Shown here one piece after another: positions 46,517 to 61,303 of a DNA stretch of 64,000 nucleotides. The DNA lies in NCBI GenBank assembly GCA_045628045.1, contig JAZQOV010000001.1, positions 64,001-128,000 of the forward strand. The letters are read 5' to 3'. The position numbers were made by a program, and so were the translations under genes. The stretch is from Bacilli bacterium. Its GTDB lineage: Bacteria; Bacillota_I; Bacilli_A; RFN20; CAG-826. The first letter of the stretch is position 1. Each line of letters starts with the position of its first letter. Under the pieces are notes generated by a model. That model saw nothing but the letters and a program-made list of their open reading frames with translations, did no database searches and had not been told where the DNA came from.

Positions 46517-46576
46517 TACATAAGATTTCTTATATACAACTTTATTTTTAAATAAATGCGACTATAATATATGTAT

Positions 46577-48055
46577 ATGAAATCGTGTCGTTTAATTCTC
46601 ATAGCTAGCGTATCAGCCTTACTTTTAGGCGGCTGTGACTTTTCGTCATTACCTGCAATTGGAGAAGAATTACAAATTTCTAATCCACCTTCAAAAACAG
46701 TTTATGTTGTCGGAGAGTCCTTTGATCCAGAAGGAATGGAGGTTGTGCTGAGCAGTCTTTTAAAAAGTGAAGTTGTTACAGACTATACATATGAGCCAAC
46801 CACTCCATTAACCTTAGAAGATGAATATATCACTGTTTTATATGATAAATATTCTGTGCAAACCCCAATTGAAATTAAGGAAGCTGCTGAAAAAGTTTTA
46901 GTAAGCATTGAAATATCAACTCCGCCTTCAAAATTAACTTATATAGAAGGTGAATCATTTGAAACTTCAGGAATGGTTGTTAAAGCTGTTTATTCAACAG
47001 GCGAAAAAGAAACAATTAGCAATTATTCAGTATCATTAACTGGTGCTTTGACTACTTCAGATAATGAAGTTTCAATTACTTACGAAGGAAAAACCGCCAG
47101 AATTTCTATTGTTGTTCAACCAAAATCCGGTGCGGTTCTTCAAAGTATTTATGTAAAAACTCAACCAAGTCAAACCACATACACCGAAGGTGATTACTTT
47201 AATCCAAACGGCATGGTTGTTATGGGCCGATACTCTGATGGAAGTGAATCTCAAATTACTTCTTATACATGCTCACCAACGAGTGCTTTAACTACTTCAA
47301 ATAAAACCATTACAGTAAGTTGTGGTAGTTTTACAGCCACAGTAAATATTACTGTTAACCCAAAACAAGGTGGTTATACTGGTTATTATGAAGAAATTAA
47401 CCCAAACAGTACGAATTTACTTAGCGATTTGCGCTCTTTAAATGGCAAAAAGCGAAAATCAACAGTTGGTTATAAACCAATGCTTAATGATCCTCAACAT
47501 GGTTTCTATTTAACAGACCCAGGAAATGGGCAAAACACTATTACTTCCTTTTATTCAGGCAAAAGTATTAACGGAACTGGTGGTTTAAATAGAGAACATG
47601 TTTGGCCAGATTCTAGAGGCGGCAATTATGTTGACAACGATATTCATATGACTCGTCCAACACTTACAGCTGAAAACGGAAATAGAGGAAATTCCTTCTA
47701 TGTTGAAGGCAAATGCAGCTCTAGTGGTGGATGGGATCCAGCAGCGACATCATTTGGCTTAGAATCCTATCGTGGCGATGCCGCTCGTATTATCTTCTAT
47801 TGCGTTGTTGCATCCAATCAATTGTCGTTAGTCGATACGAACGATGATGATAAAAATAATAAAACAATGGGCAAATTATCTGATTTAATTAAATGGAATT
47901 TAAAATACCCAGTTCTCGAGCGCGAAATGACACGAAATAACGCAGCTGAAAAGCTTCAAGGCAATAGAAATCCATTTATCGATCATCCAGAATTAGTTTG
48001 CAAAATCTGGGGAAACTACAATTCGACTACAAAATCAATATGCGGAGGATATTAA
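46577..48055 (+). CDS. Lipoprotein nuclease: three bacterial Ig-like domains plus an endonuclease I domain
   Basis: Lipobox LLGGC; three P.K..Y..GE.F...GM.V repeats; NREHVWP, N..RGN, RGD.AR..FY, QGNRNPFIDHPE. The start may be 46571. Confidence 0.88.
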   Translation: MKSCRLILIASVSALLLGGCDFSSLPAIGEELQISNPPSKTVYVVGESFDPEGMEVVLSSLLKSEVVTDYTYEPTTPLTLEDEYITVLYDKYSVQTPIEIKEAAEKVLVSIEISTPPSKLTYIEGESFETSGMVVKAVYSTGEKETISNYSVSLTGALTTSDNEVSITYEGKTARISIVVQPKSGAVLQSIYVKTQPSQTTYTEGDYFNPNGMVVMGRYSDGSESQITSYTCSPTSALTTSNKTITVSCGSFTATVNITVNPKQGGYTGYYEEINPNSTNLLSDLRSLNGKKRKSTVGYKPMLNDPQHGFYLTDPGNGQNTITSFYSGKSINGTGGLNREHVWPDSRGGNYVDNDIHMTRPTLTAENGNRGNSFYVEGKCSSSGGWDPAATSFGLESYRGDAARIIFYCVVASNQLSLVDTNDDDKNNKTMGKLSDLIKWNLKYPVLEREMTRNNAAEKLQGNRNPFIDHPELVCKIWGNYNSTTKSICGGY

Positions 48056-48056
48056 A

Positions 48057-48986
48057 ATGAAATTTGGAAAAATCGCACTTCTAACATTAGTTACCTTGGG
48101 TAGTGTTACATTAAGTAGCTGCTACATTGATTTAGGTTTTATTAAAATTGGAACAAAAACCGAAAATGGTGGAGGCGGTGGTAGCACCGTTATTGATGAT
48201 AAAACTCAAAATAATTTAATTTCAAAATATTATTCAGGTCTAAATGATAATCAAAAAGGCACCTCGCTTTTGAACGCACTTTATACATTAAACCTTTCTA
48301 AAAGAAAAACATTAACTGGATATTCAGCAATGGGTTCAACCTCTGGTGGAAAATTCAAGTTTACAGATTTTGACCCAAATTCAACAATTAAAACTGTAAA
48401 AGCCACAATTGATGGAATTAGTGTCGATGTTCCATATGGCTCAAAAGTTTTAAGTTTCTACAGCGGAAAATCCACTGCAACATTCAATAAAGAACACGTT
48501 TGGCCTGCTTCAAGACTCACTGGAGGAAGGGGCAATAATGATTTAGAGGATGATATCCTCATGCCACGCCCAACCATTTCAGAAGAAAACTCTGATCGTG
48601 GAAACTCAGTTTACGTTACAGGAATGTCCACCAGTAATGCTGGTTGGGATCCAGTAACAGCATTTAAGAACACCATAGGTGTTGCTCAAAATATTCGTGG
48701 TGAATGCGCAAGAATTATTTTCTATTGCATGACTGGTGATAATTCATTAGTTCTTAATGACAACACAAATAATAGCGGCAACAATATGGGAAAGATATCT
48801 GATCTTGTTGAATGGGCCTGTGAAAACCCTGTCAATGACAGAGAAAAACGCAGAAATTTAGGAGCCCAATATCTCCAAGGCAACAGAAATGCCTTCGTTG
48901 ATCACCCTGAATACGTTTGTAAGATTTGGGGATCAACAAACTCAAGAACAAAATCAGCTTGTCAAAAAGCAAATTACGCATATTAA
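48057..48986 (+). CDS. Lipoprotein endonuclease I family nuclease
   Basis: Lipobox LSSC; Gly linker; NKEHVWP, NSDRGN, RGECARIIFY, QGNRNAFVDHPE. Confidence 0.88.
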   Translation: MKFGKIALLTLVTLGSVTLSSCYIDLGFIKIGTKTENGGGGGSTVIDDKTQNNLISKYYSGLNDNQKGTSLLNALYTLNLSKRKTLTGYSAMGSTSGGKFKFTDFDPNSTIKTVKATIDGISVDVPYGSKVLSFYSGKSTATFNKEHVWPASRLTGGRGNNDLEDDILMPRPTISEENSDRGNSVYVTGMSTSNAGWDPVTAFKNTIGVAQNIRGECARIIFYCMTGDNSLVLNDNTNNSGNNMGKISDLVEWACENPVNDREKRRNLGAQYLQGNRNAFVDHPEYVCKIWGSTNSRTKSACQKANYAY

Positions 48987-50600: not shown

Positions 50601-53228
50601 ATGGCAAAGTTAGATCAGAATAGAACCCCATATTTAGATGCCTTAAAAACCTACATTTCAAGGAGCACTTCTCAACTAGATGTTCCTGGTCATCAACAAG
50701 GCAATGTCGAAAATAAATTAAAGGACTTTATTGGTTCTCAAGTTTTTAAATGCGACGTTAACGCTCCAATTGGGATGGATAACCTCGCAAACCCACATGC
50801 TTGCTTGGCAGAAGCCGAAGAACTTATGGCCGATTATGCAAACGCGGATCATTCGTTTTTCTTAATTAACGGAACATCAAGTGGAATCATTGCGATGATT
50901 ATGTCGGCATGTCATGCAAATGACAAAATCATTCTTCCAAGAAACGTTCATAAATCAATTGTTTCAGCACTTATTCTTTCAGGTGCTCAACCAATTTACA
51001 TAATGCCTCGTATTGACGCCGATCTTGAAATTGCAAACCAACCAACTGTAGATGAATACATAAATGCTATGCATCGTTATCCATCTGCAAAGGCAATATT
51101 TGTAATAAATCCAACATATTTTGGTGCAGTTAACGACTTAAAACGCCTCGTTGAAGAAGCTCATAAACGTGGCGTTACCGTTTTAGTAGATGAAGCACAT
51201 GGTGCTCATTACTACTTCGATAAAAAAGGGCCAGTTTCTGCTATGGATGCAGGTGCAGATATGGCTTCTGTTTCATTTCATAAAACAGCAGGATCTTTAA
51301 CTCAATCCTCAGTTTTACTTTTAAAATCAGAGATTATCGATAAAATTACTGTTCAAAAAACACTTAATATTTTAAATACAACTTCTCCATCCACAATTCT
51401 TATGGCATCTATTGATGCTGCAAGATATTTTGTTGCAACTCAAGGACAAGAAGCAATCGATAAAACTCACGAAATAAGCAAATATGCAAGAGAACAAATC
51501 TCTAAAATTAAAGGTTTTGTCCCTTGTGGAAAAGATCATTTCTTAAAACGTGGTTGTTATGATTACGATGAAACAAAACTAGTCATTAAACTAGAACATT
51601 TAGATATTAACGGCTTTGATGTTTATCAGATGCTTCAAAAAGACTATAAAATTCAGATTGAATTGGCTGAAACCTACGCAATTATGGCTATTTTGGCCAT
51701 TGGTACAGGCAAAAAGCAAATTGATAAGCTTATTAGCGCTCTTAAAGATATTTCTAAGAAACATTACAAAAAAACTTACGAATATAAACGTCATGCCTTT
51801 GGCATTGAGTTCCCATTCCAAGTTGTAAGACCAAGAAGTGCATATCACGCTGCAGGAAAACGTGTTCCTTTAGCAGAAGCTGTTAATCAAATTTCAAAAG
51901 AATCAATTATGATTTATCCTCCAGGAATTCCTTTAATTGTTCCAGGAGAAATATTTACTTCCGATCTTGTTAAGAGAATTCAAGAATACAAAAAAGCTGG
52001 AATTACAATTCTTTCCGATTATGGCGCTGACGTTGTAAACGTCATTGACACCGAAAAATGGAGAGCATTTAAATCCTATCAAAATAAAGTTAATGATTAT
52101 TTAACAAAAAAACTTACAACTCCAAGAGCTGATGATTTTTCAATGCCTTTTGAAGGTGACAAACATAGTGGAACAATTATGTTACTTCCATTTAGAAAAG
52201 ACACTTGGAGAAAAAATGCTGAGCCAGCATTAGAAAACTATAAAAAAGTAGCTCTTGCTATTGCAAAATATGAACCAGTTTATTTAGGAATTGCTCCTAA
52301 GTTATATAACCGTGTAATCAAAGATTACGAAGGAATTAAAAATATTCATCCAATTAAAGTTGCATATAACGACGCTTGGGCTCGTGATAACTCACCAATT
52401 TTTGTCACAAATGGTGAAAGAATGAGGGTTGTTGACTTTAGATTTAACGCCTGGGGCGGAGAAGTTGATGGGCTTTATTCAAATTACAAAAATGATGATG
52501 CTTTAACAAAGAATTTAGCCAAGAAATTTTCACAAGAAGTTTATAGACTTGAAGAATTTATTCTTGAAGGTGGTTCAATTCATGTTGATGGCGAAGGAAC
52601 ATGTTTAGTTACAAAAGCATGTCTACTTTCTGAAGGAAGAAATCCCGAACTTAACCAATTAGAAATTGAAGAAACTTTAAAGATTTATCTTGGTGTTAAC
52701 AAAGTTATTTGGCTTGATAACGGAATTTATCAAGACGAAACAAATGAACACGTTGATAATATGGCGTGTTTCATAAAACCTGGTGTAGTTGCCTTAGCCT
52801 GGACTAATGATAAAAAGGATCCTCAATACAAAAATTCTTCTCAAGCATTCAAGACTTTAAGTAATGAAACAGACGCTAAAGGAAGACATTTTGAAATTAT
52901 TAAAATTAAGGTTCCAAAACCAATTTATATGACTAAAAAGGAGAGTAAAGGCATTACTGCTGGAACTCATAATGCTAAAGTAAGAAATGAAGGAGACCGT
53001 TTAGCAGCTTCCTACATCAATTTCTATCAAGGTGAAAAATTTGTTATCTTGCCAGCCTTTGGCGTTCCTGAAGATAAACTTGCAAAAGAACAACTTCAAA
53101 AGCTTTATCCAAACAAGGAAATCATTCAAATTAATACAAAAGAAATTTTATTGGGCGGTGGAAATGTTCACTGCATTACAATGCAAATTCCATACAACAA
53201 GGAGTTTATAAAGAAAAATGAAAATTAA
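50601..53228 (+). CDS. Fused Orn/Lys/Arg decarboxylase (probably arginine) and agmatine deiminase
   Basis: N-terminal half: VPGH, NGTSSG, PRNVHKS, DEAHGAH, PLP-Lys SFHKT, YPPGIP. C-terminal half: TP..D.F.MP.E, DAWARD, FNAWGG, LEGGSIHVDGEGT, HVDN, GGGNVHCITMQ. Confidence 0.92.
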   Translation: MAKLDQNRTPYLDALKTYISRSTSQLDVPGHQQGNVENKLKDFIGSQVFKCDVNAPIGMDNLANPHACLAEAEELMADYANADHSFFLINGTSSGIIAMIMSACHANDKIILPRNVHKSIVSALILSGAQPIYIMPRIDADLEIANQPTVDEYINAMHRYPSAKAIFVINPTYFGAVNDLKRLVEEAHKRGVTVLVDEAHGAHYYFDKKGPVSAMDAGADMASVSFHKTAGSLTQSSVLLLKSEIIDKITVQKTLNILNTTSPSTILMASIDAARYFVATQGQEAIDKTHEISKYAREQISKIKGFVPCGKDHFLKRGCYDYDETKLVIKLEHLDINGFDVYQMLQKDYKIQIELAETYAIMAILAIGTGKKQIDKLISALKDISKKHYKKTYEYKRHAFGIEFPFQVVRPRSAYHAAGKRVPLAEAVNQISKESIMIYPPGIPLIVPGEIFTSDLVKRIQEYKKAGITILSDYGADVVNVIDTEKWRAFKSYQNKVNDYLTKKLTTPRADDFSMPFEGDKHSGTIMLLPFRKDTWRKNAEPALENYKKVALAIAKYEPVYLGIAPKLYNRVIKDYEGIKNIHPIKVAYNDAWARDNSPIFVTNGERMRVVDFRFNAWGGEVDGLYSNYKNDDALTKNLAKKFSQEVYRLEEFILEGGSIHVDGEGTCLVTKACLLSEGRNPELNQLEIEETLKIYLGVNKVIWLDNGIYQDETNEHVDNMACFIKPGVVALAWTNDKKDPQYKNSSQAFKTLSNETDAKGRHFEIIKIKVPKPIYMTKKESKGITAGTHNAKVRNEGDRLAASYINFYQGEKFVILPAFGVPEDKLAKEQLQKLYPNKEIIQINTKEILLGGGNVHCITMQIPYNKEFIKKNEN

Positions 53229-54087
53229 AGTCGCAATTACTCAAATGAGTTGTTCAAACAACTATGAAGAAAACATTAAGAAAGCTGAAGCAATGGTAAA
53301 AAAATGTGCAGAAGCCGGAGCACAAATTGTTCTTCTTCAAGAACTTTTCTCAAACTTATATTTTTGCCAAGTTGAGGACTATGATAAGTTCGATTTAGCT
53401 GAAATTCGCGAGAAATCCCCGTTAATTTCACATTTTAAGGAAGTCGCTAAGAAATATAATGTTGTTCTTCCGATTTCATTTTTTGAGAAGTCTGGAAGCA
53501 ATTATTTTAATTCGTTAGTAATGATTGACGCTGACGGTAAAGATCTTGGATTATACCGCAAGACCCACATTCCTACCGGTGAATGTTATGAAGAAAAATT
53601 CTATTTCTCACCAGGCGACACTGGGTTCAAAGTTTTTAAAACAAAGTATGGAAGAGTAGGTGTTGCTATTTGTTGGGATCAATGGTTCCCAGAGACTGCG
53701 AGAATTTTAACTTTAAAAGATGCTGAAATTTTACTTTATCCAACAGCAATTGGAAGTGAACCAGTTTTAGTTCGTGATTCAATGCCTCACTGGAGAAATA
53801 CAATGTGTGGACATGCAGCTGCAAATATTATTCCTGTTTGCGCATCAAATAGAGTTGGAACTGAAAAGGCCGGAAAATCTAGCATGAATTTCCAAGGATT
53901 CTCATTTATTGCTGATCAACATGGATGTGTTGTCGAAGAAATGAATAGAGAAGAAGAAGGTTTTAGAATCCACGAATTTGATCTAAAAGAAATCGATAAA
54001 GAGAGAGTGTCATGGGGAATCTTCAGAGATAGACGCCCAGAAGTTTATAAAGAACTTATTGGCTACTCAAAAGAAATAGATGAATAA
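53218..54087 (+). CDS. aguB: N-carbamoylputrescine amidase
   Basis: Nitrilase fold: LLQELF, YRKTHIP, EKFYF.PGD.GF, ICWDQWFPE, YPTAIGSEP. Overlaps the fusion gene. Confidence 0.93.
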   Translation: MKIKVAITQMSCSNNYEENIKKAEAMVKKCAEAGAQIVLLQELFSNLYFCQVEDYDKFDLAEIREKSPLISHFKEVAKKYNVVLPISFFEKSGSNYFNSLVMIDADGKDLGLYRKTHIPTGECYEEKFYFSPGDTGFKVFKTKYGRVGVAICWDQWFPETARILTLKDAEILLYPTAIGSEPVLVRDSMPHWRNTMCGHAAANIIPVCASNRVGTEKAGKSSMNFQGFSFIADQHGCVVEEMNREEEGFRIHEFDLKEIDKERVSWGIFRDRRPEVYKELIGYSKEIDE

Positions 54088-54994: not shown

Positions 54995-55029
54995 AACTAT
55001 TAGTTATTGATCAAAAAGTGCGTAAATCA

Positions 55030-55057
55030 TTGCGCGCTTTTTATTTTCGGTTATAAT
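55030..55057 (+). promoter_or_regulatory. Promoter of the DUF1538 operon (leaderless candidate)
   Basis: TTGCGC-16 nt-TATAAT, with an ATG 6 nt downstream and no SD. Confidence 0.6.
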
Positions 55058-55063
55058 ATGCGT

Positions 55064-56605
55064 ATGGTCGATGCACTTAAGAAGTTAAAAAATTCATTTT
55101 TATTAGTCTTACCTGTTGCTTTGGTTGTTTATGCTCTTGCTTTAGCAAAAGTTGTAGAATTCGAGCAAAGTGAGCTAATTATTTTCGGCATTAGCTGTGC
55201 TCTTGTTGTTTTGGGAATGTATCTATTTAATATTGGCGCAGAATCCTCAATGCAAAAAATGGGCGAACTTGTTGGCTCAACTGTTACTAAGAAAAAGAAT
55301 ATTGTGTTTTTGATTATCATCTTTTTCTTGTTTGGTTTATTAATTACTGTTGCCGAACCTGATTTGTCTGTGTTAGCCGAGCAGGCTTCTAGCGACCCTG
55401 CTACTAGATTGTTTTTGATTATATCAATCGGTGTAGGTGTCGGTATTTTCCTTGTTATTGGTGCATTAAGAATTTTATTTCAAAAGTCACTTAAAATTTG
55501 GCTACTCTGTTTTTATGGATTAATGTTTGCTTTATGCTGCTTAGTAGATAAAGCTAGAATTCCAGTTTCACTCGATAGTGGCGGAGTTACAACTGGCCCA
55601 ATTACAGTTCCATTTATTTTGTCAGTCGGTGTTGGTATTGCTACCAGTAAAGCCGGAAATAAATCAGACGCAGATTCATTCGGCCTTGTCGCATTCTCAT
55701 CTATTGGCCCAATTTTGGTTGTTTTAATTACCTCAATTTTAATGAGAAATATTTCAACAGCTTATGATGTTTCTGTATTAGAATACAGCTCGACTGCAAC
55801 ATCTTATTTTGACGTTTTTGCCGGAAAATTACTGGGATTTGACGGTGTTTTAATAAAAGTAGCTCTCTCAACATTACCAATAGTCGTTGTTTTTACTTTG
55901 TATGAAATCATCTTCATTAGATTATCATTCAGAAAACTTTTCGGCATGTATATCGGTGTCATATTTGTATACATTGGTTTGGTTTTCTTTTTAACTGCAG
56001 TTGAAACCGGGTTCTTACCAATGGGTCAAAAATTAGGAATTTCTCTTGCCGGAAAAGATCCAAAATTATTTATTCTTATTGGCGCTGCACTTGGCTTAGC
56101 TGCAGCATTAGCAGAGCCTGCTGTTCACGTTCTTACTCAACAAGTTGAACTTGTTTCTGACGGCTCTGTTAGCAAAGCTACAGTTTTAATTACTATTGCT
56201 TTAGGCAATGCACTTGCTATTGGGCTTTCAATGTTCCGTGTTGAATTGGGATTTGATTTGCTATGGATTATTGTTCCTGGTTATATCTTAGCATTTGCTC
56301 TTTCACTTATTGTTCCAGATATTTATTCTGCAATCGCGTTTGACGCAGGCGGAGTCGTATCTGGTCCAATGAACTCAACATTCATTTTGCCATTCGCTAT
56401 TGGCGCTTGCTATGCAATTAATGGCGAACAAGCCAGCGAAGCAATTATGACAGATGCATTTGGAACTATTGGTGTGGTTGCCTTGATGCCACTTTTAATG
56501 ATTCAAATTGTTGGTTTATCTGGAACACTTCGTATTGTTACCGAACGCAGAATTGCTCGTAGAAGAACAACATCTGAAAACGACAATCAAATTATTCATT
56601 TTTAG
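55064..56605 (+). CDS. Membrane protein with two DUF1538 domains (putative transporter)
   Basis: Duplicated motifs AEPDL/AEPAV, DSGGVTTGP/DAGGVVSGP, DSFG/DAFG. Confidence 0.85.
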   Translation: MVDALKKLKNSFLLVLPVALVVYALALAKVVEFEQSELIIFGISCALVVLGMYLFNIGAESSMQKMGELVGSTVTKKKNIVFLIIIFFLFGLLITVAEPDLSVLAEQASSDPATRLFLIISIGVGVGIFLVIGALRILFQKSLKIWLLCFYGLMFALCCLVDKARIPVSLDSGGVTTGPITVPFILSVGVGIATSKAGNKSDADSFGLVAFSSIGPILVVLITSILMRNISTAYDVSVLEYSSTATSYFDVFAGKLLGFDGVLIKVALSTLPIVVVFTLYEIIFIRLSFRKLFGMYIGVIFVYIGLVFFLTAVETGFLPMGQKLGISLAGKDPKLFILIGAALGLAAALAEPAVHVLTQQVELVSDGSVSKATVLITIALGNALAIGLSMFRVELGFDLLWIIVPGYILAFALSLIVPDIYSAIAFDAGGVVSGPMNSTFILPFAIGACYAINGEQASEAIMTDAFGTIGVVALMPLLMIQIVGLSGTLRIVTERRIARRRTTSENDNQIIHF

Positions 56606-56614
56606 GAGGGACTT

Positions 56615-57049
56615 ATGGCTTTAAAAAATAAAAAATTATTTAAAAAGAACGATGACAAAGAAAGCTTTGTGCCTTTTGAAAAAGAAAATGAAGTTAAACC
56701 ATTAAAACTTTTTATTACTGTTGTTCCTTTTGGCCAAGCAAATGCCATTGTCAAATTAATAGAACAATTTAGATCAACTTATAGTTATGTTACAACGGGT
56801 GAAGGCACCGGAAGGAATTTTATGCCTGGTCTTTTATCTGTTTCCGATTCTAAAAAGCAAATTGTGTTTTCTTTTGTTAGAGAAGATAGAGCAAAAGAAG
56901 TTGCTGATGCGTTAGCAGAAAGATTTTCGACTTCAAAAGCCGCGAATGGCGTTTCTATGTCAGTCAAATTAACTTCCATTGCTGGAGTTTCTGTTTATAG
57001 ATTTTTAACAAATATCAGAAAGGTTAAAAAGGTATCGAAATATGAATAA
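56615..57049 (+). CDS. Divergent PII-like protein with an N-terminal extension
   Basis: LFITVV..G.A..., GEGTG T-loop base, KQIVFSFV, GVSMSV; parallels the next ORF. Confidence 0.65.
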   Translation: MALKNKKLFKKNDDKESFVPFEKENEVKPLKLFITVVPFGQANAIVKLIEQFRSTYSYVTTGEGTGRNFMPGLLSVSDSKKQIVFSFVREDRAKEVADALAERFSTSKAANGVSMSVKLTSIAGVSVYRFLTNIRKVKKVSKYE

Positions 57050-57365
57050 TTCAAACAAAGAACTCATTTGTTGTGTTATCAACAATGGTTATTCAGATTT
57101 AGTAATGTCTGCCGCAAAAAAGAAAGGCGCAAGAGGCGGAACCATTTTCCATGGTAAAGGCACAGGCGCAGAAGATGCAGAAAAATTCTTTGGAATTAAA
57201 ATTTCTCCAGAGAAAGAAATTGTACTAATTGTTGTTGAAGCTGAACAAAAGGATGATATAGTTTCTGCCATTTATGAAGAGGCAGGTCTTGACACAAAAG
57301 GACAAGGCATTATTTTTACCTTACCAGTTGATGATTTTATAACAAGCAAAATTGAAAATAAATAA
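57042..57365 (+). CDS. PII-like protein
   Basis: GARGGTI..GKGTG, EKEIVLIVV, GQGIIF.LPV; 107 aa. Confidence 0.85.
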   Translation: MNNSNKELICCVINNGYSDLVMSAAKKKGARGGTIFHGKGTGAEDAEKFFGIKISPEKEIVLIVVEAEQKDDIVSAIYEEAGLDTKGQGIIFTLPVDDFITSKIENK

Positions 57366-59095: not shown

Positions 59096-60079
59096 TTATT
59101 TTCCTCCTTTTGTAATCGAATATATGATGTGGTCTAACAAGAGACCAATATTTACGTTGTAGTCGAACTTTTTAAGTGATGACATAAGAACAATAATTGA
59201 CTTGTCTATGTTAGTCACATGATTTAAGAGTTCATGTAATATATTATCATAACTTTTCAATGTTATGGATTTGTTTACTTGTATATTAAGCAATTCTTTA
59301 AAAATTTCAGTGAGCATTTTGATGTAGAGTTTTGCGACACTTGCTTGTTTCATTTCTGGAATGATTAATCGTTGGCAAGTAAACACTGCATTCTCAGGTG
59401 AAATAAGCAATGAATTAATTTGATCATCAAGTGCTTGTTTTGCAACTTGGTAATCTTTGCTTTCTGCAATTGCTTTTAGTGAATCTGCATCATTGCAAAA
59501 ACCACTTAAAATTTCAGCTTCTTCCGGTAAAACCCCGTTATTTTCCGCTTCTTTTATAATTTTGTCTCTGTCAATTTCTTTGAACCTAAGTACTTGAGTT
59601 CTAGAGATAATTGTTGGCAAAATCTTTGTTTCGTTTTCGGTTGTTAGGAATGCAAAAATGTTCTTTCCTGGTTCTTCCAAAAACTTCAATAATGAGTTAA
59701 CAGCAATCGGAGTCATTGTCTCTACAAGATGAAGGACATAAATCATAATTCCTTTTTCTTCGAGAGCGGTTTTATCAAAACTTGAAATAATTCTTTCGAT
59801 ATCACCTTTTTTAATCTTTGCATCTCCATCACCAAAAACCAATAAATCTGGGTAGTGATTTTCATCCACTCTGCAACAAGTAATACAACTGTTACAAGCA
59901 AGCGGATTTGGATTATCGCAGAGTATTGACTTTGCAAGATAAATTGCTGTTTCTTTTAGAGGCATTCCAACAGAACCGCTTAATAAATAAGCGTGTGAAA
60001 GTTTCTTTGTTTGGAGTGCATTAACAAAGGTTTTATAAATTATCGGTTGGTATTCTTCTAAATATTTATCTATTTGCAT
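59096..60079 (-). CDS. holB: DNA polymerase III delta' subunit
   Basis: SHAYLL, zinc module C..C..C, NSLLKFLEEP, LPTIISR; lies between tmk and ricT. Confidence 0.92.
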   Translation of the reverse strand: MQIDKYLEEYQPIIYKTFVNALQTKKLSHAYLLSGSVGMPLKETAIYLAKSILCDNPNPLACNSCITCCRVDENHYPDLLVFGDGDAKIKKGDIERIISSFDKTALEEKGIMIYVLHLVETMTPIAVNSLLKFLEEPGKNIFAFLTTENETKILPTIISRTQVLRFKEIDRDKIIKEAENNGVLPEEAEILSGFCNDADSLKAIAESKDYQVAKQALDDQINSLLISPENAVFTCQRLIIPEMKQASVAKLYIKMLTEIFKELLNIQVNKSITLKSYDNILHELLNHVTNIDKSIIVLMSSLKKFDYNVNIGLLLDHIIYSITKGGK

Positions 60080-60696
60080 TTCGCTATTCTACTTTTGATA
60101 GCGTTATAGGCATCTTTTACGACTTCATCAAATGGTTTTGAAGCATCTAAAACCACATATCTATCGCTAAATCTTTTGGCAAGATCTAAAAATGTCCTTC
60201 TAACACTGTCATGAAATTCAATTTTCTCTAAATCTAAACGATTTACTTCTCTATTATTATTTGCTGCTATTCTAGCAAGGCCAATGCGTGGATCAATGTC
60301 AAATAACAAAGTTAAATCAGGATAAAATCCATCAGTTGCATATTGATTAAGTGATAAAACTTTATCAATTCCAATTCCTCTAGCTCCACCTTGGTAGGCT
60401 AAAGAGGAATCTAAAAATCTATCAGAAATAACAATTTTGCCTTCTTTAGAAAGAGGCCAGACCTTTTCAACTAAATGTTGCCTTCTACTTGCAGCATAAA
60501 GCAAAGCCTCTGTTACTGGATCCATTGCAGTATTCTTTTTATCTAAGATAACATTACGAATTTCTTCTGCGATTGGAGTTCCTCCAGGTTCGCGAGTTAA
60601 AACGATGGAGTAGCCTTCTTGTTCTAGAAGTTTGGTTACTTCTTTAGTAACGGATGATTTACCACTTCCTTCTGGTCCTTCTATAGTTACAAACAT
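60070..60696 (-). CDS. tmk: Thymidylate kinase
   Basis: EGPEGSGKS, TREPGG, DRF..SS.AYQG. SD AAGGAG precedes the ATG at 60696. Confidence 0.97.
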   Translation of the reverse strand: MFVTIEGPEGSGKSSVTKEVTKLLEQEGYSIVLTREPGGTPIAEEIRNVILDKKNTAMDPVTEALLYAASRRQHLVEKVWPLSKEGKIVISDRFLDSSLAYQGGARGIGIDKVLSLNQYATDGFYPDLTLLFDIDPRIGLARIAANNNREVNRLDLEKIEFHDSVRRTFLDLAKRFSDRYVVLDASKPFDEVVKDAYNAIKSRIAKCK

Positions 60697-60706
60697 AGTT
60701 TTCTCC

Positions 60707-61303
60707 TTAAATCTTATTTCTTCCTTCAAGTGCTTTGGTCAACGTTAATGCATCTGCGTACTCAAGATGGCCGCCTAAAGGGAGCCCGTACGCGAGACGT
60801 GTAATTTTAACACCAGTACTTGCGAGTATATGCGCCAAATATAGAGCGGTTGTTTCGCCTTCAGTATTTGGATTTGTTGCAATAATAATTTCTTCAGCAT
60901 TTTGAGATTTGATTCTATCGAATAATGAGGAAATATTAAGTTTATCGATTGTAATTCCGTTCACGGAACTTAGTGCTCCACCTAGCACATGATAAACACC
61001 ATCGTAAACGCCAATTTTTTCAAATGAAATTATGTCTTTTGCGTATGAAACAACCATGATTTTTTTAAAATCTCTTGTTTTTGAACTACAAATTTCACAA
61101 AGTTCGTCTTCTGTGTATGCGCCACAAACTGGGCAATGGTGAATATTTGTTTTTACTTCGTTTAAAGCATTTGAAAACTCTTCAACAGTTTCTGGTTTCA
61201 TATCTAAAACCTGGTAAGCCATTTTTTCGGCAGTTTTATGGCCGATTCCTGGTAAACGTTGAAATGAGTTAACTAATTTTGAAATGCTGCGAAGTTCTTT
61301 CAT
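60707..61303 (-). CDS. recR: Recombination mediator RecR
   Basis: LPGIG.KTA, C4 zinc finger, YHVLGG, ATNPNTEGETTA. Confidence 0.97.
   Translation of the reverse strand: MKELRSISKLVNSFQRLPGIGHKTAEKMAYQVLDMKPETVEEFSNALNEVKTNIHHCPVCGAYTEDELCEICSSKTRDFKKIMVVSYAKDIISFEKIGVYDGVYHVLGGALSSVNGITIDKLNISSLFDRIKSQNAEEIIIATNPNTEGETTALYLAHILASTGVKITRLAYGLPLGGHLEYADALTLTKALEGRNKI

Follow-up and report, generated by a model that had tools for sequence, protein, structure and literature searches.

A decarboxylase–agmatine deiminase fusion conserved in a clade of uncultured gut Bacilli and its likely role in putrescine formation

Introduction

Arginine, ornithine and lysine decarboxylases occur within a single decarboxylase family, as surveyed in PMC8503589, which includes the ancestral-form arginine decarboxylases (ADCs) of aspartate aminotransferase (AAT) fold described from Streptococcus pneumoniae (SP_0916), Clostridioides difficile and Psychrilyobacter sp. 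S5 as well as Methanimicrococcus blatticola (PMC8503589; PMC7531197). These enzymes share a wingless, ∼490-residue pyridoxal phosphate (PLP) domain, the same catalytic residues and the same N-terminal clade signature with the decarboxylase considered here, which forms the first part of an 875-aa protein encoded at 50601..53228 (+ strand) of a 64,000-nucleotide stretch, hereafter the window, of contig JAZQOV010000001.1 (positions 64,001 to 128,000; assembly GCA_045628045.1) from a Bacilli bacterium of the order RFN20. Whereas the described ADCs are stand-alone proteins, often encoded with spermidine genes, the window protein has a helix and a whole agmatine deiminase (AguA) appended, and a spermidine pathway was not found in the source genome. 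The deiminase in turn has the propeller fold and full catalytic set known from the AguA/AguB systems (AguA structures from Enterococcus faecalis, 2JER; Streptococcus mutans, 2EWO; Arabidopsis, 3H7C), with the N-terminal TTP..D motif and an aguB gene behind it in common, but known AguA enzymes, as far as they are described in PMC4487231, have no extra domain.

The nearest precedent is the Fusobacterium nucleatum fusion of an ancestral ornithine decarboxylase (ODC) to a dead arginase-like domain (PMC8503589), which combines the same decarboxylase fold with a C-terminal guanidino-processing enzyme but differs in decarboxylase clade, substrate and second fold. A dead second domain is known in both families; that of the assayed F. 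nucleatum protein was judged inactive in the account given there, while that of the window family is intact in nearly all members. In another Fusobacterium cluster (P0129), a 782-aa decarboxylase-arginase fusion, the arginase half seems to retain the metal-binding Asp lost in F. nucleatum, and this protein could be an active arginase-ODC chain. A fused aguA-aguB reported from a Diapherotrites archaeon (PMC10407285) belongs to the same three-step pathway, joining steps 2 and 3 where the window protein joins 1 and 2. Full-text literature searches, in which few subscription papers were covered, returned no description of a decarboxylase-AguA fusion, in keeping with the statement in a preliminary description of this DNA that no characterised example was known. 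The fusion is thus conserved and apparently undescribed in print, a new arrangement of well-known enzymes with no new chemistry.

The interpretation favoured here, with a probability of roughly 0.8, is that a single chain with two intact domains likely converts arginine to agmatine and then to N-carbamoylputrescine, which the AguB encoded by the overlapping downstream gene would hydrolyse to putrescine; that the route is biosynthetic and its agmatine free; and that the chain stems from one fusion, later re-split in some relatives and half-inactivated in others.

The fused gene

All 875 codons of 50601-53228 are open, with no internal stops. The decarboxylase part (residues 1-486, 50601..52058; PF01276 and PF03711) matches OKR_DC_1 at 9-326 (E 9e-68) and OKR_DC_1_C at 377-455. 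It is wingless, its domain beginning at residue 9 with no N-terminal receiver (wing) domain, and models of winged forms align only from model position ∼108-141, far under cut-off. The junction, W487-P516 (52059..52148), comprises a predicted amphipathic helix (488-503) leading into the AguA N-terminal TTP..D motif. The agmatine deiminase part (residues 506-864, 52116..53192) matches PAD_porph at 515-864 (E 3e-108), and the fused protein scores 451 bits against the NCBIfam aguA family TIGR03380 (cut-off 382), missing the PRK13551 subfamily cut-off (462 versus 483). The PLP lysine K228 and the catalytic C858 of the deiminase are encoded at 51282-51284 and 53172-53174. The start of aguB (53218..54087; 289 aa; TIGR03381, 422 versus a cut-off of 410), which encodes the N-carbamoylputrescine amidase, overlaps the end of the fused gene by 11 nt; all of these features are on the + strand. 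Only two in-frame start codons, Met515 and Met527, fall between codons 465 and 530, and no purine-rich ribosome site precedes either; nor is there one before the start of the fusion itself, which lies 2 nt past the metG stop.

Close relatives have operons in which the two genes are split and overlap, a circumstance that gives some colour to the idea that a single frame arose by an assembly or sequencing error merging two genes. Contigs from four of four runs, belonging to four studies, cross the junction region 52050-52150 with no gaps, and one of them covers the entire 3.7 kb with 108 substitutions; in addition, 249 distinct fused sequences were collected and, among the homologues listed, 120 of 120 are full length with both domains present. 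An artefact is thereby virtually excluded and the fused frame is confirmed as genuine. On each structural point the preliminary description was accurate: the single uninterrupted 875-aa open reading frame, every active-site motif it quoted, the three Pfam domains it expected on one chain, the lack of an internal start preceded by a Shine-Dalgarno sequence, the aguB overlap, and a junction that proved to contain no indel or stop.

Active sites and linker

In an alignment of 94 fusions, the PLP lysine K228 and the PLP-binding His and Asp residues of the decarboxylase part (H117, D197, H200) are kept in every sequence. W593, H717, D719, N807 and C858 of the deiminase are likewise invariant and D596 is conserved in 93 of 94; together these correspond to the set W93, D96, H218, D220, N306 and C357 given for E. 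faecalis AguA in PMC4487231, so that the Cys-His-Asn residues, the two guanidinium-binding Asp and the Trp of an AguA are all present in a chain that departs from the single-domain form by the ∼490-residue decarboxylase preceding them. By a strict pattern, 243 of the 249 distinct fusions have the catalytic motifs of each half; four of the six misses are changed beside a catalytic residue, one has D596 changed and one is a dead form. The proposal that the enzyme is bifunctional therefore gains from two intact active sites in a conserved two-domain protein, but the agmatine channelling suggested with it is not supported (see below).

An AlphaFold model of the fused protein (mean predicted local distance difference test score, pLDDT, 89; predicted template modelling score, pTM, 0.67) comprises two well-formed domains linked by a predicted helix at 488-503 (segments 488-492 and 494-503), following a last decarboxylase strand at 478-482, with lower confidence at 501-510. 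The C-terminal domain model superimposes on the solved AguA chains 3h7c, 2jer and 6nic with template modelling (TM) scores of 0.94-0.95. Across the 94 fusions W487, F/Y490 and Y/F500 are present in all and L497 in 88, and W487, F/Y490, Y493, L497 and Y500 lie on a single helix face. The spacing from W487 to P516 is 29 residues in 245 of the 249 distinct fusions, the remaining four being unmatched by the pattern. Conservation of this kind indicates that the linker is not a random tether.

Substrate of the decarboxylase half

The window decarboxylase carries the N-terminal signature D-V-P-G-H ... D-x-N ... M/L-D-N, which agrees by eye with the rows of the assayed ADCs of S. pneumoniae, C. difficile, Psychrilyobacter and M. 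blatticola in a published alignment, and is unlike the rows for the ornithine enzymes of Clostridium and Fusobacterium, which read H-V-P-G-H ... D-V-T (Fig. S4, PMC8503589); the assayed reference enzymes were compared by eye with this alignment only, outside the trees built here. S. pneumoniae SP_0916, which shares the signature, was reported to favour arginine over lysine by 24-fold and over ornithine by 83-fold (PMC7531197). In a tree of 200 sequences the Fusobacterium-type P0129 was placed in the opposite half. Genomic partners point the same way, the decarboxylase being accompanied almost always by a single enzyme that uses agmatine. Among 70 chosen genomes, an agmatinase-type gene was detected in 24 of the 25 that have this decarboxylase without AguA and in none of the 40 that have AguA (fused, split or remote), where one arginase-like gene was seen, and agmatinase lies directly downstream of many stand-alone copies of the decarboxylase. 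Both partners, AguA and agmatinase, act on agmatine. From these lines together we infer that arginine is probably the preferred substrate, a preference well supported by context.

Several observations weigh against this assignment. In the data presented in PMC8503589, C. botulinum, which has AguA and AguB, has an ornithine-specific decarboxylase, and specificity switches between close homologues. The Bacillus subtilis ADC also bears the H-type signature, so the motif is diagnostic of a clade rather than of a residue that sets specificity. In the genera g24 and g27 the agmatinase-type genes score slightly below the curated cut-off (152-173 versus 174). Finally, the 70 genomes of the partner survey were hand-picked and are related, so that the counts are not independent and represent a pattern, not a statistical test. 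As a separate observation, the g24 and g27 loci L280-L284, L286 and L287 encode diverged agmatinase-type ureohydrolases, several of which adjoin an iron-sulphur protein gene.

Were the N-terminal domain instead to prefer ornithine or lysine, the deiminase and AguB would take imported agmatine and two diamine routes would merely be co-localised, for which the C. botulinum ODC beside AguA/AguB and the F. nucleatum fusion of ODC with an arginase-like domain offer precedents (PMC8503589, as far as described there). This is distinctly improbable given the ADC-clade signature and the near-perfect pairing with agmatine-using enzymes; moreover, neither arginase nor arginine synthesis was found in the genome as a supply of ornithine, and no agmatine antiporter is located beside the genes.

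Pathway role and end product

The route laid out in the preliminary description, from arginine to putrescine with release of 2 CO2 and 2 NH3 and no gain of ATP, agrees with an intact two-domain protein coupled to aguB. Its role would be a housekeeping, biosynthetic one in which imported arginine is converted to putrescine as end product. Agmatine probably passes between the active sites via solution, with no tunnel. The tethered deiminase likely serves to clear agmatine, a product that would inhibit this type of decarboxylase; product inhibition has been reported for such enzymes in PMC8503589.

Searches of the source genome, which is 96% complete, did not find SpeE, SpeD, an alanine racemase (AR)-fold decarboxylase, deoxyhypusine synthase, agmatinase, argininosuccinate synthase or, above cut-off, carboxyspermidine dehydrogenase; of 54 genomes searched for SpeE, none yielded it. 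Since a spermidine pathway was not found in the source genome, the route probably ends with putrescine, a result against which it must be set that homospermidine synthase was not searched directly. PotA is above cut-off in the source genome, with a PotC-like permease gene nearby, and spermidine is probably taken up via PotABC. Matches to PF01564 in 20 of 24 genomes of the genus were rejected as SpeE; they are weak and confined to model positions ∼20-111 of ∼360-aa proteins, one of which, when scanned, matched no NCBIfam family at E 1e-15. This ∼360-aa protein, with its weak spermidine synthase Pfam match over ∼90 positions, is encoded in most genomes of the genus (L024-L027).

The system is not an ATP-yielding agmatine deiminase (AgDI) system, in which aguA is clustered with genes for putrescine transcarbamylase, carbamate kinase and an antiporter, since the operon lacks all three and has the hydrolase gene aguB after the deiminase instead. 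The sole carbamoyltransferase of the genome reaches a TIGR04384 score of 236, where 500 is required, and is encoded in an ssnA/xdh/ygeY cluster; a carbamate kinase gene is located on another contig in another context. Details of these two loci are as follows: the ssnA / xanthine-dehydrogenase-like / ygeY cluster at G000:C11:89959-100610 (L167) has the unclassified carbamoyltransferase at its end, and the separate carbamate kinase is at G000:C2:49782-50714 (L166).

Polyamine supply and acid neutralisation had both been proposed for the pathway, and the evidence favours the first, putrescine biosynthesis. Two NH3 are formed per arginine by stoichiometry, and a gene for a DUF1538 protein, resembling the UmpA/UmpB cation/proton antiporter, is found two genes downstream of the fusion and in three other loci, so far compatible with a pathway whose main effect is to neutralise acid through proton uptake and ammonia release. 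However, acid-inducible decarboxylases are winged forms with a cognate antiporter in the treatment of PMC8503589, and acid resistance fits poorly because there is neither a wing domain nor a cognate antiporter here. In the loci examined, the genes adjoining the fusion include no amino-acid/amine antiporter, the sole amino acid-polyamine-organocation (APC) permease of the genome is on another contig among sugar-nucleotide genes, and the fused gene stands between the housekeeping genes metG and rluA with a promoter signal not above chance (34 sites versus 41.6 expected). An acid resistance role is hence poorly supported and, as the main function, improbable. As a biosynthetic pathway, the fusion and aguB would constitute a two-gene arginine-to-putrescine route for small-genome, uncultured gut Bacilli, and a single-chain arginine-to-carbamoylputrescine enzyme could aid putrescine engineering.

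Inactive relatives and coupling of the domains

Five protein clusters (P0122, P0343, P0344, P0345 and P0346) combine an intact decarboxylase and linker, the decarboxylase being full length in four and a fragment in one, with a deiminase domain that has lost its catalytic residues (D719, N807 and C858 in all five, H717 in three). The dead domains are 46-67% identical among themselves and 20-27% identical to the window protein. In 401 genomes of the order no dead form was found, the best matches (≤36% identical) being ordinary fusions, and a metagenome scan gave best segments of 34-57% with no genomes found.

Retention of the whole chain after loss of the catalytic set suggests a structural coupling of the domains, whereby, with unchanged chemistry, the linker helix would dock the deiminase on the decarboxylase and agmatine would be channelled, or the deiminase would control assembly or activity. 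Also consistent with coupling are a model of one dead form (pTM 0.81, with the same secondary-structure pattern), a linker fixed at 29 residues with one conserved aromatic face among proteins ∼51-99% alike, and the helix kept as a tail by split decarboxylases. However, the dead-form model was built on an alignment of mostly active-form sequences, the window-protein model reaches a pTM of only 0.67 with lower confidence at 501-510, the decarboxylase may be all that the conserved face of the helix packs against, the active sites of AguA are closed in the structures treated in PMC4487231, and split operons persist in eight genomes, while many others have the genes wholly apart. Whether the split forms preceded or followed the fusion, they attest that the enzymes can do without the covalent link, which argues against obligatory channelling. 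Channelling of agmatine, put forward in the preliminary description, is accordingly unsupported, and coupling in general is rather unlikely. A related and similarly doubtful idea is that the deiminase half, held on a fixed-length helix, serves the decarboxylase as a subunit with a structural or regulatory function; it is raised because dead forms persist as a full chain, in parallel with the F. nucleatum ODC-dead arginase, and it would explain both the pseudoenzyme and the helix of the split forms. If it were true, the fused-active, fused-dead and re-split forms would make up a natural series leading from a pathway enzyme to a domain with a regulatory role, and channelling of agmatine by the active form would be conceivable.

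Split relatives and direction of evolution

Eight genomes (L050, L051, L153 and L263-L267), four of which are labelled Anaeroplasma or Anaeroplasmataceae, carry three separate genes, for the decarboxylase, AguA and AguB, in unchanged order. Each of these aguA genes begins in the +1 frame inside the codons of the linker helix, overlapping the tail of the decarboxylase gene; the tail contains a ribosome-site-like GAGG in all eight and is recognisable as the linker helix in seven. The W-to-P distance is 76-91 nt in the split forms (88 in one) versus 87 in the fusions.

Trees were built from subsets of the fetched sequences picked for spread (41, 55, 49 and 40 rows). The decarboxylase tree joins the split clade as sister group (support 97/86) to two fusions from outside the order, which have the same 87-nt junction and the same linker length, and fusion followed by fission is favoured for this reason. 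An early tree placed the split form as sister of all fusions, an arrangement that was altered once the out-of-order fusions were added. It counts against the proposed direction that it depends on one branch (97/86) and that a tree uniting all fusions was not rejected by the approximately unbiased test (p-AU 0.156), which leaves room for an origin from an overlapping operon. In the deiminase tree, the g13 split genes first grouped with stand-alone f3 genes; a grouping of fused and g13 sequences was not rejected (p-AU 0.086), and the base of a larger deiminase tree is not resolved. There was probably one fusion origin, with later re-splitting in one lineage and half-inactivation in another. With one enzyme pair available in matched forms, whether fused, split or half-dead, the family provides a test set for why consecutive enzymes fuse.

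Distribution

The fusion was detected in 78 of 301 genomes of the order, including the source genome; two of the 78 are cut by contig ends yet span the junction. All except one, from another family, belong to the window's family (77 of 198 genomes). Of 399 genomes drawn from across the class and scored, 347 lie outside the order; two of these have the fusion, both from one genus. Among 1.84 billion representatives at 50% identity, the best 150 matches include two full-length fusions and one fragment, and a protein atlas search yielded only stand-alone decarboxylase clusters, at 0.84. Within the material searched, the architecture is therefore common, not rare, inside a single clade and almost missing outside it.

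Several of the runs carrying this DNA are animal gut metagenomes, and relatives are labelled as metagenome-assembled genomes of Bacilli, Bacillales or Erysipelotrichaceae. The route is hidden by database labels, which usually call the protein just 'agmatine deiminase', and these bacteria may thus contribute unnoticed to putrescine production and agmatine consumption in the gut of animals.

Five further candidates (G091, G154, G377, G464 and G540), open frames of 778-801 aa over stand-alone decarboxylases, were rejected as fusions; four are separate genes, and in G154 the extension is an upstream open stretch without a Pfam match. A single-member cluster (P0223, 1051 aa) joins an AR-fold decarboxylase to an agmatine deiminase with ∼300 unassigned residues between them, possibly an independent fusion of the same two pathway steps.

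Neighbouring genes and source genome

The fused gene belongs to a closely packed series of genes read in one direction, metG - fusion - aguB - rluA - DUF1538 - two P-II-like genes, and aguB is immediately 3′ of the fusion in 79 of 79 distinct loci. Neither speE nor carboxyspermidine genes are among these flanking genes, as had been noted at the outset. The DUF1538 protein, with two UmpA/UmpB-like halves, and the two P-II-like genes that follow occupy 55007-57365, and the same block is also near the fusion in L070, L085 and L158.

The source genome (1.07 Mb, 96% complete) has only one PF01276 gene, and a paralogue of the YaaO type, a non-polyamine second copy directly upstream of tmk, was ruled out on this ground; a tmk-like open reading frame, recognised by eye at 60070-60729, is on the strand opposite the fusion and has a different gene upstream. 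An alternative genetic code was also considered, the order RFN20 including a CGG-to-Trp clade according to the report in PMC8629427. The fused gene has no CGG or CGA, and the AGG at residue 609 is at a conserved Arg position. Genome-wide, CGG is nearly absent (9 of 210,417 codons in long open reading frames) and a tRNA with a CCG anticodon was not found. Elsewhere in the window, at 46571-48986, is a tandem pair of Endonuclease I genes, the first of which carries two Ig-like domains; the N-termini of both products appear lipoprotein-like by eye.

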